This document shows, piece after piece, positions 14,209 through 62,412 of a stretch of 64,000 bases of DNA; the stretch's first letter is position 1, and each line of letters begins with the position of its first letter. The DNA comes from Sedimentisphaerales bacterium (lineage in GTDB: Bacteria; Planctomycetota; Phycisphaerae; Sedimentisphaerales; SM23-30): NCBI GenBank assembly GCA_963663965.2, contig CAXXFK010000019.1, positions 64,001 through 128,000 on the forward strand. The letters are read 5' to 3'. The position numbers and the translations under genes are program-made. The notes under the pieces were generated by a model, which saw only the letters and a list, made by a program, of their open reading frames with translations, did no database searches and had not been told where the DNA came from.

Positions 14209-14526
14209 AATTGATAGAATGAAATAAGGTCCAGCTATCGGTAACCATTCGAGAGTTATCCAGATTACGACATAGATTACCAACCGAACAGAAATTTGAA
14301 TAATCGCTTAAAAAACAAAGGTAGAGACTCTCTACCTTTGTTTTTAGGAAAATCTGGGCAGCCCACAGTTCTCGGTTTAAGCTTTCATAGTAAATTGCCG
14401 GCTTCCTCCCGACTGATTCAAAACGAACCCAATTTTCACCATTTATCTAACAATACCATCCAGACTACCTTACCTGTTACGCCAGTAAATTGCTGTATCA
14501 ATAGTCCATGCTTTCAGATTATCCAC

Positions 14527-27544: not shown

Positions 27545-27684
27545 CAGGCAACTTTCTTATGGTTGGGTGGATCGTGATAGTGGTATTTGTCTTAAATATA
27601 ACTGCGCATAGTGTCTCTCATTGCATCATGGTGTCATGATGATTATAGGGGGCGGCGCGCCTTTATGTTGAAATCAGTAATGGA

Positions 27685-28524
27685 TTATTTCTTTTCCTCC
27701 TGGATGGGGATATCGGCCGGGGGTTTGGTGGGGATGCCGAGGGCGTGGAGGGCTTCTTCGCCGTTCTGCTGGGAGAACGTGTTGAGGGCTTCGTAGCGGT
27801 TGCAGGCGTAACTGAAGACCTGATCGTCAGTTACGCTGTGGTCTTTCATCAATTCGGGCAGGCGGTCTTTGATGTATTCGGGGGCCAATTTGGCTTCGCT
27901 GGGGTGTGTGGGGATTTTGGGGGGATCGGGGATGTGGATGCGGGGCAGGTTGGGAAATGGGTACTCGGGTGGGTAAACATTGGGTTCGTTTGGAACGGGT
28001 TGTAACTGAAGTTGCTGAAGGAGGTTGAGTTTGGCCTGGAAGATTCGATTGAGGTGGGCTTCGTAGCGGGCCAGGCAGTTGAAGGCGGGGGTTTCGAGGG
28101 TGAAGGCCGTGCCGACTTCGTTGTGGCGGGGAAGATAGATACTTGAGTGGGCGAAGGGTTGGTCGATGACGGTGTCTTTGCGGATTTCTTCGTTGGTGAG
28201 GCGGAGTTTATAGACGCGGGCGTCGATCATTTCGGCTTCGATGCGGCCGAGGCGTTCAAGGCGCCAGGCGGCCGAGACGATCTGGTCGGCGATGTGGCGC
28301 TGGAGATAAGTCGTTGGTTTGAGGTCTTGTAACAATGCGGCGCGGAATTCGAGGTAGGTGAGTTCGGACTCGCCGGGGACAATGAGGTGGGCGGGGTCCT
28401 GGCCGCTGAGGCCGTGTTTGATGGCATTCTTTGATGAGATGGCCTTGCCCTCGGGGGTTTTTGGGCCGGTGGATTTCTGGGCGTTACGACGGTTGGCGCG
28501 TAGTCTTCTTAGTGACGATGACAT
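27685..28524 (-). CDS. Uncharacterised protein of the ANRRNAQKSTGP-T-EGK...N..KHGL type
   Basis: AGGAGG RBS, N-terminal ANRRNAQKSTGPKTPEGKAISSKNAIKHGL, W.L.R..R.E, L.RYE..L.R, NEPN, Pro-rich tail. Confidence 0.8.
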   Translation of the reverse strand: MSSSLRRLRANRRNAQKSTGPKTPEGKAISSKNAIKHGLSGQDPAHLIVPGESELTYLEFRAALLQDLKPTTYLQRHIADQIVSAAWRLERLGRIEAEMIDARVYKLRLTNEEIRKDTVIDQPFAHSSIYLPRHNEVGTAFTLETPAFNCLARYEAHLNRIFQAKLNLLQQLQLQPVPNEPNVYPPEYPFPNLPRIHIPDPPKIPTHPSEAKLAPEYIKDRLPELMKDHSVTDDQVFSYACNRYEALNTFSQQNGEEALHALGIPTKPPADIPIQEEKK

Positions 28525-28553
28525 GGTGGGTACCTCCTTGGTTGGGAATTATT

Positions 28554-28592
28554 AATTACGAATTACGAGTTACGAGTTACGAATTACGAATT
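28554..28592. repeat. Tandem heptamer block A(A/G)TTACG x5
   Basis: aattacg aattacg agttacg agttacg aattacg aatt. Confidence 0.9.
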
Positions 28593-28602
28593 TAAAATTG
28601 TG

Positions 28603-29410
28603 GTATCCGCCAAGTGGCGGATGTTCGTTTTATTTTTAGTTAAGCTCAATTCTTGGTTGAGGTTAGGGCGATATTTTTTCATGTTGGGTTTGTTTCGTTT
28701 TATGTTGGTATTCGCTGCGCTCATGGCTGGTTTTATCTTTCGCCTCCGGTGCGAAATCCTGCAGGTACGCCTCTGCGAGGCGTGGGTTTAAAATTTTCTA
28801 CGCTGGTTCGGGTATTCCCGCCAATGAATTGGCGGGCTATGCGCTTTTGATCTCTCCGAGATATTATTTGTATCCGCCATTCGGCGGATGATTTTTTTAT
28901 TTTTCGTTAAGCTCGTTTCATTGTTGGGGTTAGGGCAATATTTTAACCCATTGGCTTTGTTTCGTTTTCTGTTGGTATTCGCTGCGCTCATGGTAAGTTT
29001 TATCTATCTCTTTTGCGAGATATCCTGTCGGTACGCCTCTGCGAGGCGAGGGTTTAAAATTTCAATCTCATGATCGTTACCCAGGGTGGCGCTCGTCCCG
29101 TTATACGGGATTCGCTCTACCCTGGGCTGTTTTATGCCGGCCCGTTGGGCCGCTTTGGGTATCCGCCTGCGGCGGATGTTCGTATAATTTTGGTTAAGTT
29201 TCGTTCGTTGTTCAGGTTAGAGTGATATTTTTTCCTGTTGGCTTTGTTTCGTTTTGTGTTGGTATTCGCTGCTCTCATGTTAGTTTTATCTTTCGCCTCC
29301 GGTGCGAAATCCTGTCGGTACGCCTCTACGAGGCGTGGGTTTAAAATTAAATTTCAATCTCTATCCGGGGCCTTACGGACCCCGGCTAGTTACTTTCGGC
29401 TTTTCAAGCC
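28603..29410. repeat. Array of three ~190-bp direct repeats (28603-28795, 28870-29061, 29159-29348), each followed by a different REP-like hairpin element
   Basis: Each unit reads GTATCCGCC-loop-GGCGGATG...TTAAG...GGTTAG...TTGG(G/C)TTTGTTTCGTTTT.TGTTGGTATTCGCTGC.CTCATG...GGTACGCCTCT.CGAGGCG.GGGTTTAAAATT. Confidence 0.93.
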
Positions 29411-29839
29411 TTTTATGGCTGGGTTGTCGGGTTGTGTCATATTTGTATATCCCATTTCATTCGTATTGTTAAAACAGCCAAAATAAATTGGCTGGTTGGG
29501 CCTGGTTCGTACGCTATCGCACCAAGCCAAGAATGCACCCATAAGCTGCGCTTGAAGGCGCCACGGTTTATGCGCATAAAATCTCTGTAGGCGTGGCCGG
29601 TTGGGTGTGGGGCACACCGGGGGTTCGGGGGCTATTGGGGCGACTTTGGGATTATAGACTGAGTTGTTGTATTAGTCAAAACAAATATTATGTTTTTAAT
29701 TTAAATAACATAAAATTTAAGGTATTATGTTTTTGTGGTAGTTTAGTTTTAGAGGTGAAATTCAGCTGACCTATTCTTAATGGTTTATTAGTTATAGATT
29801 TATGTTGATTTAAGGCGTTGTCAACAAAATAATATACTC

Positions 29840-31383
29840 GTAACATTTTAGCCAACTGAAGCAAATTTTCTAAAATTGTCAAGAAAACGCTTGCGCCCGT
29901 GTTTGTTTTGTGTATGCTTAACAAGCATGAGCATGCATAGTAAAGCCCAACAGATTCTGGCCAACCTGAACGGACCGATGACGGCCGAGCAGGCGCGGGC
30001 GATATTTGCCTTGGGTGAAGAGGCGGTGGTGTTTGCTTTGCTGAAATTGTCGTCGCTTCAGACCGTTTCGCCCGCTTCCACTACGGGGGCGTTGGGGCCT
30101 CACGATCCCTCGTGCTCTTCGGGACAGAAACCGCCGTTTGTCAAAGACAATCTCTCGGACAAGCGGCGTAAGAAACTCAAGGGACGCAAAGCGGGTCATC
30201 CCGGCGTTCGCCGACCGGCTCCTGACCGGGTCGACCGGACCGAAGCGCATCGGGCCGACTGTTGTCCGGATTGCGGCGGCCACCTGAAGCGCTGTGCCGA
30301 GACCCGCGAACGACTGATCGAAGACCTGCCCGCCTCGACCCGCATTGAAGTCGTTCGCCATATCATTCATCGCGACTGGTGTTCCAACTGCCGCAAGATG
30401 GTTGAACCGGTGATTGACGCCGCTCTGCCACGCGCCACCGTTGGCAATGGGATGCTGGTGTTGTGCGCCTGGCTGCATTTTGCCCTGGGCAACACGATTT
30501 CGCAGATTCTGGCGGTGTTCAATTACCATTTGCAATTTAAAATGTCCGGCGGCGGCCTGGTGCAGATGTGGCACCGGCTGGCGACCATTCTGGAAGCCTG
30601 GTACGATGAAATTCTGGCTGACATTCAGAAGGTCGGCGCCTTGTTTGCCGACGAGACGGGCTGGCGGATGGATGGCAAAACCCATTGGCTCTGGTGCTTT
30701 ACCAGCGCGACGGCCACCATCTTTACTATCGAGCAATCGCGGGCCGGGCCGGTGGTGCTGGCGTTTATTAAAGAATGGTTCGACGGCGTGTTGGTGAGCG
30801 ACTTCTGGTACGCTTACAATGTGCTGGATTGCGCCAAACAAAAATGCCTGGTGCACCTGTTGCGCGAGTTGGAGCGGGTCAAAAAATATAAGAACTGCGA
30901 CAGCGACTGGCCCCGGTTTGGCAAATCGCTCAAGCGGTTGCTGCGCGATGCCATCCGTCTGAGCAAGCGGCAGGCGGACCTGGAACCGGCCATCTACCAG
31001 CGGCGTTGCGCCCTCATCGAAAAACGACTGCAAGCGATTCTGGATCATGCCTGGTCCCATCCCGATGCCAAGCGGCTGATAAAACGGCTCAAACGTCATC
31101 AAGCCGAACTGTTTACCTTTTTGTATCATCCGGAAGTGCCCTTCGACAATAACTTCGGCGAACGCAGTATCCGTGGCGCAGTGATCATGCGCAAAAACAG
31201 CTACAACAACCGCAGCCCGCGGGGCGCCCGCATCCAATCCATCCTGATGAGCGTGTTCTACACCCTCAAACAGCGTGGTCTCAATCCGGTCGCCGCTGTC
31301 AAAAAAGCACTGCAAATCTATCTCCAAACGGGTAAATTACCTACTTTAGCCCAATTACCTGCTTCACTTGGCTAAAATCTTAC
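29840..31383 (+). mobile_element. IS66-family insertion sequence (single-ORF, ISBst12-like organisation)
   Basis: IRL GTAACATTTTAGCCAA (29840) and IRR TTGGCTAAAATCTTAC (ends 31383), one mismatch. 8-bp TSD ATATACTC at 29832-29839 and 31384-31391. Confidence 0.95.
29927..31375 (+). CDS. IS66-family DDE transposase
   Basis: G.K.GH.G, CPDCG and CSNC zinc finger, ADETGW, WLW, LVSD...Y, QKCLVHLLR, DNN.GER.IR. Confidence 0.93.
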   Translation: MSMHSKAQQILANLNGPMTAEQARAIFALGEEAVVFALLKLSSLQTVSPASTTGALGPHDPSCSSGQKPPFVKDNLSDKRRKKLKGRKAGHPGVRRPAPDRVDRTEAHRADCCPDCGGHLKRCAETRERLIEDLPASTRIEVVRHIIHRDWCSNCRKMVEPVIDAALPRATVGNGMLVLCAWLHFALGNTISQILAVFNYHLQFKMSGGGLVQMWHRLATILEAWYDEILADIQKVGALFADETGWRMDGKTHWLWCFTSATATIFTIEQSRAGPVVLAFIKEWFDGVLVSDFWYAYNVLDCAKQKCLVHLLRELERVKKYKNCDSDWPRFGKSLKRLLRDAIRLSKRQADLEPAIYQRRCALIEKRLQAILDHAWSHPDAKRLIKRLKRHQAELFTFLYHPEVPFDNNFGERSIRGAVIMRKNSYNNRSPRGARIQSILMSVFYTLKQRGLNPVAAVKKALQIYLQTGKLPTLAQLPASLG

Positions 31384-31489
31384 ATATACTCTGTGTTATA
31401 TAAAGACCCGTTGATCGAATCATAGTTACTGTGTTTTATTATAATCAGAGCGATATCAATCATGCCCATTTAATGAACACGGAAAGAAT

Positions 31490-33460: not shown

Positions 33461-33546
33461 GGCGGGCTATGCACGGTTATCTCCTCCTGAGGCGGACCTT
33501 CGGCATTGGGGCGGATGTTGTTTTATTTTTCGTTACGCTCGATTCA
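33461..33546. repeat. Degenerate partial copy of the array junction (REP tail plus start of unit)
   Basis: GGCGGGCTATGCAC resembles 28831 GGCGGGCTATGCGC. GGCGGATGTTGTTTTATTTTTCGTTACGCTCGATTC resembles unit 1 GGCGGATGTTCGTTTTATTTTTAGTTAAGCTCAATTC. Confidence 0.7.
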
Positions 33547-35615: not shown

Positions 35616-36940
35616 GGCTCATCCGGTTAATGAGTAGTTTTGGTTATGGATATGATGGATCCGGAGATAGAAGTATTCCTGATCGCGGTAGCCATGAGCC
35701 ATTCGTTGCAGGAGGCCGATTTTACGGTTATTGACTTCGACTTTGCTGGTGCTGATGGGATGGTCATACCAATTGAGCAGGAAGGGTTTCCAGAGTTGCA
35801 GTTGTTTGGCGGCATCCAGCAGGATCCGAATCCCGCTGGTTTGCGCCTGGCTGATCCAGCGTTTGAGTTCCTGTTCAGCCAGCGGAGCCGTGATCGCATC
35901 AAAAAGGAGACGGAGCCGTTCTTTCATGTAATAGGCGGTGGCCAGCGGCTGGTTGAGTTGCAGAGCCTCCTGCAACCGGCGCCGTTCATCTTTGGCGCTA
36001 TCGGCATGGGATTTAAGGTTCTCCGGCGCTTTGAGCAGCAGCCAGCGGCTGCCTTTGAGTACCGCTTTGCCCATGGTATCGGCCTCCCGGTATAAATCCC
36101 GGCGTAAGCGGGTCAGTTTGTCGTTAAACCATTTGACCAGATGAAAATGGTCCAGCACCAGTTTGGCTTGCGGCAGTTCTTTCAGGACACTGGTCATAAA
36201 ACCACTGGCCATATCGGTAGCCACCGCGGCAATCACCGCCCGGCTGCGTCGGACACGCCCCCAGAATCCCACCAGGGCCTCTTGGCCTTTGCCCTGGCCG
36301 ATATGCAAAATTTGACCGCTTTCCAGGTCGGTTACCAGCGAGATGTATTTGCTTTTCCTGCCCAGATACAATTCGTCAATCCCCAGATAACGAACCTTTT
36401 TCAGGGAAATCTTTCGGTACCGTCGACCTAGCCAGGACTTATGAATCGATTTGATGGTATCCCAGCTTAAGCCGGTCCGTCGGGCCACCTCTTGCAGGGA
36501 AGCCGCCTGACATAAATCGATGACATACCGTTCCAACGCATGGGTGTAATGCTTCTTGGGGTCGGCAAATGGCAGATGAGGCTGACGAATGGCCCCGCAC
36601 GCCTGACATTTCAATCGGGGAATAGTGACAAGCAACTCCATTTGACGCAGACCGGCAGGTACCATGGCAAACCTCCGGGCCTTGTGACCGAAGTAAATGA
36701 AATTACGGGAGTTACAACAAGGGCAACGCAGACTATCCGCCGGCAAGATGCCGTGAATCACGCTCTTGCCCGCAAAAATATTCTGTCTTTTGGTATTGAA
36801 CACCTCGAACACCAAAAGTATGATACAACATACTTGTGGACATGACTTTAGCTCCTAATATGAGGTTTTATTTTTTTCCTCAAACAGTAAAGTCATGTCT
36901 CTCTTTTTGCAACATTAACTACTCATTTTTCGGAAGAACC
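35616..36940 (-). mobile_element. ISL3-family insertion sequence
   Basis: Imperfect 24-bp IRs GGCTCATCCGGTTAATGAGTAGTT and (rev) GGTTCTTCCGAAAAATGAGTAGTT. 8-bp TSD GTTTTTTT at 35608-35615 and 36941-36948. Confidence 0.93.
35619..36843 (-). CDS. ISL3-family transposase with +1 frameshift near 36776
   Basis: CPCC and CQAC, LGIDE, ATDM, DHFHLVK, LKGSRWLLLK, E..N.KI...R..HGYRD..YF. The N-terminus MSTSMLYHTFGVRG..Y lies in another frame and joins at the A5 run 36774-36778. Confidence 0.88.
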
Positions 36941-47241: not shown

Positions 47242-47439
47242 GATTGTTGAGGGAAGTCAATGGGTGAATATTTTGGATTATGGATGAAAACCAGTTGGAG
47301 TGTATGTTGTAATATTCTGTTAAATAAAGAATTATGTTATTAAAAGTTGGTGTCAACAAAATAAATAACACTGTGTCTATATGATTTGTTGTGTTAAAAT
47401 GGTAAAATTGGGTAATATGGAAAATATATTCTTATTGTT

Positions 47440-61701: not shown

Positions 61702-62154
61702 ATGGCCTGTTCTTATGTTAGTTGCTATATACATTATATTTTCAGTACAAAATACCATCGTTGCAGTATCACTCAAGATATTAAATCGAGGCTCTGGCAA
61801 TATTTTGGTGGTATTGCCAAAGAGAATAAGATGACATTATTAGAAGCTAATGGCACTAATGATCATGTTCATTTATTGGTGATTTTACCAGCGACCCTTT
61901 CGATTGCCAAGGCGATTCAATATCTAAAGGGTGGATCATCCAAATGGATACACGATCAATTTCCGCATTCGATGCAATTTTCGTGGCAGGAAGGTTATGG
62001 CGCTTTTTCTGTGAGTCGTTCCGGCGTTGATAGAACAATAGAATATATTCGAAATCAGGAAACTCATCATCGAACCATGACTTTTGAAGAGGAGTATGTC
62101 CGATTTCTTGATAAATATGGAGTTACCTATGAGATGCAGTATGTATTCGATTAA
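61702..62154 (+). mobile_element. tnpA: IS200/IS605-family Y1 HUH transposase (TnpA/RAYT-like), no tnpB
   Basis: HYIFSTK.R, DHVHLL (HUH), KG.SSKW, F.WQEGYGAFSVS, YI.NQ..HH (catalytic Y), F.EEY..FL. Confidence 0.92.
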
Positions 62155-62155
62155 T

Positions 62156-62412
62156 ACTTTCGTCCCTACGGGACTTACTCGTTCCAGGGGGGGCCATAAA
62201 CCCGCAGTTAAAACTGCGGGCTATTAACTTATGTCCCTAGCGGGACATTTTTGGGAATGTTCGGATTACCGAATACCCGCCGTTAAAACGGCGGGCTACG
62301 CACTTTCGTCCCTACGGGACTTACTCGTTTCAAGGGGGGCCACCCGCAGTTAAAACTGCGGGCTATTAACTTATGTCCCTGACGGGACATTTTTTGGTCC
62401 GCCTGCGGCGGA
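62156..62412. repeat. REP cluster downstream of tnpA
   Basis: Three copies of CCCGC..TTAAAAC..GCGGG-CT-10 nt-GTCCC.(3-4).GGGAC (62201, 62276, 62343). 62156-62250 is nearly duplicated at 62302-62392. Ends with TCCGCCTGCGGCGGA. Confidence 0.9.

Follow-up and report, generated by a model that had tools for sequence, protein, structure and literature searches.

A multicopy mosaic element with a small-terminase-like gene and phased boxes in a Sedimentisphaerales genome: a possible selfish element relying on a terminase in trans

Introduction

At 28603-29410 of the window (the whole stretch of 64,000 nucleotides analysed here, from contig CAXXFK010000019.1 of a Sedimentisphaerales bacterium), three long direct repeats alternate with three inserts of unrelated sequence. 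What is such an array, and to what does it belong? The first-pass annotation, made from the letters alone, had read it as one recognition end from each of several HUH transposase/REP families, set at a fixed position in a constant scaffold, and had suggested a catalogue, a decoy or a guide-like array. In the following, G000 designates the genome under study and C numbers its contigs.

Results

The array is the variable leader of a 2.2-kb element

The three direct repeats were borne out, at 28603-28795, 28870-29061 and 29159-29348, with 158-167 of 193-194 columns identical in pairwise comparison (82-87% identity). The inserts lay where they had been placed, and the layout described for them (long hairpin, CT, 10-11 nt, 5-bp stem) was present in all three; the REP adjoining the Y1 gene of the window was likewise as claimed, and was recognised by Rfam as Acido-Lenti-1 at 62276-62321 (46.2 bits). 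Insert 3 (29349-29411) is indeed an insert of this kind, but it connects the last unit with a promoter-proximal leader instead of lying between two units. The notion of a single-locus array had to be given up: 90 unit cores were counted at 43 loci, with a copy of ORF279 adjoining at 26 of these. BLAST on the genome returned 128-142 matches per unit and 43, 36 and 17 matches for inserts 1, 2 and 3, respectively, and a genome-wide scan for the hairpin-CT-hairpin layout gave 52 sites, of which 40 adjoined units and 12 lay elsewhere, 6 of the latter flanking two IS200-like Y1 genes. Rfam yielded nothing at gathering threshold within the array.

The array proved to be the variable leader of a 2.2-kb element present in 26 copies in the genome. 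Both the phased box in each unit and the TerS-like ORF present in 26 copies had been missed in the first-pass annotation. The features of the window copy, together with the Y1 locus of the window, are as follows.

27603-27684, minus strand: variable 3' tail with a loose hairpin and a degenerate box; the right end of the element is likely near 27603
27685-28524, minus strand: ORF279, 279 aa, all-helical (model), small-terminase-like, with an in-frame box at 27980-27991
28525-28602, minus strand: linker with a ribosome-binding site (28532-28538) and short heptamer repeats, identical in copy C3_47962
28603-28795, minus strand: unit 1, with hairpins at 28604-28622, 28711-28723, 28739-28755 and 28766-28782 and the phased box at 28641-28695
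28796-28869, plus strand: insert class 1, a REP-derived hairpin-CT-hairpin whose nearest REP is that of the window's Y1 gene
28870-29061, minus strand: unit 2, with the box at 28908-28962 and an alternative hairpin at 29007-29020
29062-29158, plus strand: insert class 2, REP-like, no cognate tnpA found
29159-29348, minus strand: unit 3, with the box at 29195-29249
29349-29411, plus strand: insert class 3, promoter-proximal in every case; nearest REP at the Y1 gene at G000:C32:102700
29412-29650, minus strand: conserved proximal leader with a RAYT-type REP module at 29535-29558
29651-29679, minus strand: predicted sigma-70-type promoter (-10 at 29651-29656, -35 at 29674-29679, 17-nt spacer), directed through the array to ORF279
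29680-29839, no strand assigned: AT-rich distal end with a shared end motif at 29819-29833, resuming past IS66 at about 31384-31405
29840-31383, plus strand: IS66, inserted in the distal end and foreign to the element (Pfam DDE_Tnp_IS66, inverted arms)
61702-62397, plus strand: IS200-like Y1 gene (PF01797 at 61702-62154) with an Acido-Lenti-1 REP cluster, the source family of insert 1, unlinked to the element

On the minus strand the element thus runs from an AT-rich end through the predicted promoter, the proximal leader, the units and a ribosome-binding site to ORF279 and an 80-nt tail. ORF279 is represented by 26 full-length copies, each adjoining a unit cluster, and by one fragment; 17 of the 43 unit loci are devoid of it. 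The promoter pattern was found in 24 of the 26 copies, with TTG and TATAAT kept and a variable spacer, and the tail consensus, a loose one drawn from 26 copies, faded about 80 nt beyond the stop codon. Leaders contained 1, 2, 3, 4 or 8 boxes (4, 10, 9, 2 and 1 copies, respectively) and 15 different insert orders were distinguished, that of the window occurring in four copies (all by regular-expression parse); unit number and insert order thus vary between copies in one genome. We consider it almost certain that the locus belongs to a multicopy mosaic element. A solo box at 14417-14440 and a unit fragment at 33501-33546 were also observed in the window.

Among the 11 copies that have both ends, no target-site duplication was detected (5.0 for the longest shared word, versus 5.1 in mismatched pairs), a test limited by ends that are only loosely placed, and the same end comparison revealed no terminal inverted repeats. 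No empty site was found for the element. Its flanks are mostly unrelated among copies; five copies have a common promoter-side flank, and their ORFs differ by 41-63 nt. The IS66 of the window is bordered by an 8-bp target duplication (29832-29839 and 31384-31391). In three other copies the same IS end lies inside insert 2, at one spot, and in one copy another IS lies at a unit junction; we take these to be IS110 and ISL3, on recognition and not on a library match. Elsewhere in the window, an IS with 24-nt inverted ends occupies 35616-36940, and its end occurs 14 times in the genome, once within an array on C28.

The distal motif was also observed alone at 47340-47365 of the window and at 48 other sites in G000, many of them at promoters. 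In six cases it stands ahead of a member of a large Y1 gene family (C1:253069 and others); it was not found among 60 relatives. Its identification as an SOS box was rejected, the solo sites being assorted housekeeping and Y1 promoters (translations judged by eye). A structured 5' leader RNA was also discarded as the main role of the array: folding of the mRNA strand gave local hairpins only (a fold without shuffle control at this length), and the wobble pairs point to the opposite strand, not to the mRNA.

The inserts form three fixed REP-like classes

Insert 1 was closest to the REP of the window's tnpA (33/47 identities, versus 18-21 with the C32 REP), and insert 3 to the REP of the C32 tnpA (35/47-48, versus 23-26 with the window REP). 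The leader module at 29535-29558 matched REPs around a RAYT gene at C30:221195. Around the C32 Y1 gene, four Acido-Lenti-1 matches exceeded the threshold; among the window inserts, insert 2 alone scored against this family, with 24.6 bits for a threshold of 37. The proposal that the inserts derive from different REP families thus holds for two classes, which track different resident Y1 enzymes; for insert 2, which is REP-like, no cognate tnpA was found. Similarly, ends from several REP families are retained as the ancestry of three modules, and dropped as something acquired locus by locus. The exact insert sequences flank no tnpA. A 14-nt palindromic insert was observed within stems or loops of several hairpin modules and free REPs, with 57 sites in G000.

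Each insert belongs to one of three fixed classes passed on from copy to copy; insert 1, for example, was found at 42 sites in units and 2 outside. The interpretation as a one-off catalogue, decoy or guide array was therefore abandoned, and a CRISPR, TIGR or guide array was ruled out because three insert classes are reused. The first-pass annotation had been right to set CRISPR aside: the units measure 190 bp, the three insert classes recur across loci and no Rfam CRISPR match was obtained, unlike CRISPR arrays with their 23-55-bp repeats and unique acquired spacers. Of the outcome that the first-pass annotation had named as its own refutation (an abundant dispersed unit, occurring singly with random neighbours), the dispersal was observed, but the units are neither single nor randomly placed.

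Copies of ORF279 are intact and recombined

All 26 copies of ORF279 are 840 nt long with no internal stop. They differ by 33-93 nt (4-11% divergence; median 61 nt), with synonymous sites dominating and a pN/pS of 0.11 over the 26 copies. Four-gamete incompatibility equalled the permuted level beyond 30 nt, and was already 0.47-0.49 for sites 7-30 nt apart, that is, within one read. Multi-base marker pairs were incompatible in 18 cases out of 28, and distances computed from the three thirds of the gene correlated at just -0.09 to 0.24. The left part of the window array matched copy C3_47962 (96-100%) and the right part copy C20_131140 (98-100%), when the window ORF279 differs from the ORFs of these copies by 65 and 76 nt, respectively. 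Recombination between loci is well supported, since markers are incompatible, the thirds are uncorrelated and the array matches different copies than the ORF does. Independent mutation on a star tree was rejected as the source of this linkage equilibrium: 42 out of 107 fourfold sites were invariant versus 5.5 expected, and 16 sites had 9 or more minor alleles versus fewer than one expected.

It could be argued that the mosaicism was created by the assembly of a metagenome-derived genome (94.6% complete, 5.4% contamination) whose true copies are more uniform, and no run contig examined spans the whole element. We regard this as very improbable, as incompatibility is high inside single-read range, alternative alleles and module joints are numerous in the run contigs, the frequency spectrum is incompatible with a simple star of errors, and synonymous sites dominate.

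A phased box accompanies the gene family

The 12-nt core of the box was found at 258 exact sites in the genome, versus about 4 expected from base composition; 120 of these have TAAC at +30 and 95 have CTTA at +51. TAA peaks at +21, +30, +42, +53 and +63 of the core, the features being about 10.5 bp apart. At 93 homologue loci, the core was detected 74 times on the gene strand versus twice on the other in 50 kb of downstream sequence, and twice in 124 kb of upstream sequence; homologues in other phyla thus have the box on their 3' side. A survey of 60 relatives for a 15-nt form of the box gave at least two copies in 8 of the 13 that have the gene and in none of the 47 that do not (Fisher p = 5e-7, an overstated value because relatives are not independent). 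Gene-less copies in G062 and G030 retain the promoter, the leader and a box pair.

The full three-part box pattern occurs at 92 sites in G000 versus none in the 60 relatives, among which the leader has no long match, and upstream box stacking and REP padding appear, from these comparisons, to be specific to this genome. A positional profile of downstream units from 25 other loci matched the G000 units only when displaced by 5 nt, the mean score being negative, so that homology of the units is established for the 12-nt core only. Overall, we consider it probable that ORF279 is a TerS-like protein with a cognate box.

ORF279 belongs to a large family and resembles small terminases

ORF279 matched no Pfam, NCBIfam or PHROG family, and none was common to its 119 aligned homologues. 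A profile search retrieved 52,745 homologue clusters (50% identity) at E 0.001, the weak tail of which will include proteins with the N-terminal motif alone in common, and 11,002 at 1e-30. Named records include Phycisphaerae, Pirellulales, Terriglobia, Bryobacterales and Alphaproteobacteria. The family is multicopy elsewhere, with up to 42 matches per genome (20 of the 25 genomes around G043, excluding G066), and many copies in other genomes contain stops. Residues R12, N14, S18, N33, H37, E52, W87, R91 and Y154 are kept. A tblastn search of annotated phages with P0003 gave no match, and plasmids gave six partial ones.

The monomer was modelled as all-helical (pLDDT 75.9). No known fold was retrieved from PDB or BFVD at E <= 0.001, the best Z of 7.9 corresponding to common helical arrangements; no PDB sequence matched, and Atlas neighbours are unnamed. 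Among 37 viral loci with the N-terminal motif, 19 motif-bearing ORFs and 15 next ORFs were scanned: 5 of the former matched PHROG small terminases and 7 of the latter were large terminases. The profile alignment of ORF279 with phage genes in TerS position covers residues 1-63 only, and is partly circular, those genes having been retrieved by the same N-terminal motif. PHROG TerS matches of single homologues were weak (E 0.002-0.006), and the low-confidence model of one phage group has the same helix order. Four copies of residues 1-180 were modelled head to tail via two faces, with a score of 0.81 versus 0.02 for the best control; in the calibration, which was run with two copies instead of four, 20 of 30 solved pairs and 1 of 23 monomers attained the mark used. 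The runs agreed in at least 56% of contacts (pLDDT >= 71). ORF279 is thus modelled as a homo-oligomer formed via a helical hairpin, in a four-copy assembly that does not show a closed ring.

Large terminases and a second cargo gene

To what extent is the family linked to large terminase genes? In Acidobacteria, 10 of 37 stand-alone matches to the terL ATPase half lay within 1.1 kb of a full-length family gene, versus 0.38 expected. These pairs belong to five genomes, and their number is a lower bound, 150 of 275 family matches having been covered. In three pairs the genes are in tandem with the family gene first, in one it comes after, and six are divergent, an orientation unlike that of phage terS-terL. 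At six terL-adjacent loci, where 31 of 63 ORFs were scanned, terL was the sole packaging match, with no portal or capsid. In nine loci (L195, L196, L198 and L202-L207, in G043, G067, G075, G078 and G079), terL was observed to be split into ATPase and nuclease ORFs, with several copies per Acidobacterial genome, among housekeeping genes. No terL was found in the flanks (up to 3 kb) of 80 best-hit loci, which makes most family members solo, and none adjoins ORF279 in G000.

The host has an intact, single-copy terL of 489 aa at C30:122209-123675 (L153:10207-11676, minus strand). Genes of this type were found in 51 of 61 genomes and in 39 of the 40 good ones, with one strong copy each, and the ATPase and nuclease motifs were kept in the 25 examined, barring a few pattern misses. 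Since the host terL is present in nearly all relatives and the element in 13 of 60, their co-occurrence is uninformative. At a distance of 72 kb from terL, C30:195449-198713 contains a portal and a major head gene (cluster to 205000, L179), and the major head gene was found in 49 of 61 genomes at 60-75% identity. The Pfam models Terminase_6N, Phage_portal and Phage_capsid had no match in G000, though PHROG detects terL, portal and head there; PF06074 had no match anywhere, controls included. The host terL, portal and capsid genes appear to be vertically kept, and constitute a candidate GTA-like system.

A second cargo, ORF2, was found in G000 with the same promoter head, boxes and hairpin units, the units lying downstream. 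It occurs at C30:123900-124450 and at least 11 other sites (e.g., C1:379270, C27:10530 and C13:104460), two copies being frameshifted, and one copy directly precedes the host terL. A gene of about 140 aa, TerS-like by position only, lies upstream of terL in 14 of 24 relatives' loci; its profile matched 12 ORF2 copies (E 5e-5 to 5e-4), with a moderate hhalign value of 84.7%. A word search found no ORF2 homologue outside G000. Homology of ORF279 to ORF2 or to the small gene before the host terL was rejected (hhalign below 1%). Two unrelated TerS-like genes have thus undergone amplification on a single box-bearing chassis, and their host possesses a GTA-like gene set. Two further small HTH genes at C22:90757 and C24:4048 resemble the terL-upstream family (E about 1e-8). 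About 4.5 kb upstream of terL (L153:16266-18731), GNAT-like, ABC-ATPase-like and HTH genes were observed, and relatives have similar genes or a ParB-like gene adjoining terL.

Discussion

A proposed mechanism and its rivals

We give an even chance to the following interpretation: the locus represents one copy of a selfish element that is devoid of a transposase, has a TerS-like gene, a promoter and phased boxes, and relies on a terminase in trans. The boxes are the predicted binding sites of ORF279, which would form a ring wrapping each box of about 75 bp, in the way pac sites are bound. DNA wrapping is a feature of SPP1 pacL. ORF279 would then recruit a large terminase in trans, here the domesticated TerL of the host, which would cut at the element and may package the element and its flanks into the GTA-like heads of the host. 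Incoming or intracellular fragments would recombine with other copies; mosaic ORFs and shuffled arrays would result and, less often, insertions at new sites. The boxes of this genome form a stack upstream of the gene, with REP-derived hairpins as padding; the latter are inherited modules, and may also act as HUH nicking sites that speed shuffling. Insertion at new sites is the weakest step of this mechanism, as packaging and homologous recombination account for mosaicism better than for new-site insertion.

Alternatively, and along the lines of the first-pass annotation, the cassettes might be built, shuffled or moved by Y1/RAYT HUH enzymes working in trans on the REP-like hairpins, with recognition ends from several REP families gathered in the element. 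This explanation is backed by module matches to the REPs of three resident Y1/RAYT genes and by the distal motif, which also stands ahead of six Y1 genes. Among hairpin variants, G-T outnumbers A-C when the strand opposite the mRNA is considered (28 versus 9, counts that are not independent), and the E. coli TnpA-REP is described as cleaving ssDNA at CT (PMC3333891). However, ORF279 is equally mosaic though it has no such hairpins, the gene-box element was amplified in relatives in which the leader has no long match, and the inserts are degenerate relative to Acido-Lenti-1, which renders this explanation rather unlikely. We also think it unlikely, though a little less so, that ORF279 and its boxes mobilise the element intracellularly without particles, either through the TerL nuclease alone or through an unrecognised catalysis by ORF279, gene-less box pairs being MITE-like followers. 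Boxes multiply only where the gene is present, Acidobacterial cassettes consist of the gene and a split terL with no head genes, and the residues kept in the family could be read in the same direction; but no catalytic fold was found, Y154 falls in the predicted subunit interface, and no target duplication was detected.

Finally, the copies might be kept by the host, with many TerS-like genes and boxes serving either as decoys, by which phage packaging would be poisoned, or to set the points from which GTA-like particles are filled. The intactness of 26 ORFs out of 26 despite 4-11% divergence, their kept promoters, and the presence in the same cassette type of a homologue of the gene upstream of the host terL, with one copy directly before terL, are all in line with this. 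Yet the element is distributed in patches and bursts, stops occur in many of the copies found in other genomes, gene-less copies exceed genes in number, and frequent gene conversion would suffice to keep copies intact; we hold host maintenance to be improbable.

Comparison with known systems

TerS is described as a small oligomer that picks DNA for TerL (PMC7947584, PMC8575950). Like the TerS of pac phages, SaPIs and PICIs, ORF279 is small, helical and expected to be an oligomer, with its site in or beside its own gene, and its N-terminal motif is common to phage genes in TerS position; beyond residue 63, the likeness is one of modelled helix order only. Unlike SaPIs and PICIs, the element has no integrase, replicase or att site, consists of 2.2 kb with one ORF, and occurs as 26 dispersed copies at mostly unrelated sites, with gene-less followers and mostly no terL alongside. 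REP clusters, CT cleavage and REPs as IS targets are described in PMC6006769 and PMC3333891. The element resembles REP, BIME and REPIN systems in its hairpin modules, which are related to resident Y1 REPs (below Rfam threshold), in its mosaic clusters and in the IS within a hairpin; it differs in having modules in direct order, from several families at once, around a non-REP box. There is no inverted REP doublet as in REPtrons, BIMEs and REPINs, the inserts having a single orientation, and no tnpA within the cluster, the gene enclosed being other than a Y1. As with IS and their MITE derivatives, gene-bearing and gene-less copies burst together in some genomes, but the element has no transposase family, terminal inverted repeats or target duplication, and its copies are diverged mosaics, not near-identical.

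As in RcGTA-type systems, terL, portal and major head genes are retained in single copy throughout the order of the host. The TerS of RcGTA binds DNA non-specifically, without packaging start sites (PMC7947584); by contrast, the element would add specific sites as a parasite. In the full-text literature, with most subscription journals outside its scope, no account was found of HGGxSTG or, among the matches listed, of the family peptide motifs, nor of a terminase or capsid of Phycisphaerae or Sedimentisphaerales; nothing relevant was found for Acidobacterial stand-alone terminases. The same literature yielded known GTA and satellite work and no multicopy small-terminase element, as far as main texts go: the supplements of PMC2864571 and bioRxiv 10.64898/2026.10.21.760802 may mention repeats. 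A terminase-linked selfish element is thus apparently undescribed.

Implications

More tentatively, we propose that minimal satellites made of a TerS-like gene and phased pac-like boxes, with no transposase, integrase or replicase, exist across phyla and owe their spread to a terminase, domesticated (GTA-like) or from a prophage, that they redirect to themselves, particle-borne fragments recombining among copies; here, the small-subunit gene of the host terminase would also have been captured. If this is true, one of the larger unnamed bacterial protein families would gain a function, and a common intergenic repeat would be explained as the binding site of that family. The element would then be a mobile one in which DNA-packaging machinery takes the place of a transposase, and would parasitise a gene transfer agent; the long-standing question of whether selfish DNA can bias GTA packaging towards itself would thereby become testable. 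A TerS ring with a defined site of about 75 bp could direct packaging, and each copy could start the lateral transfer of neighbouring host genes.
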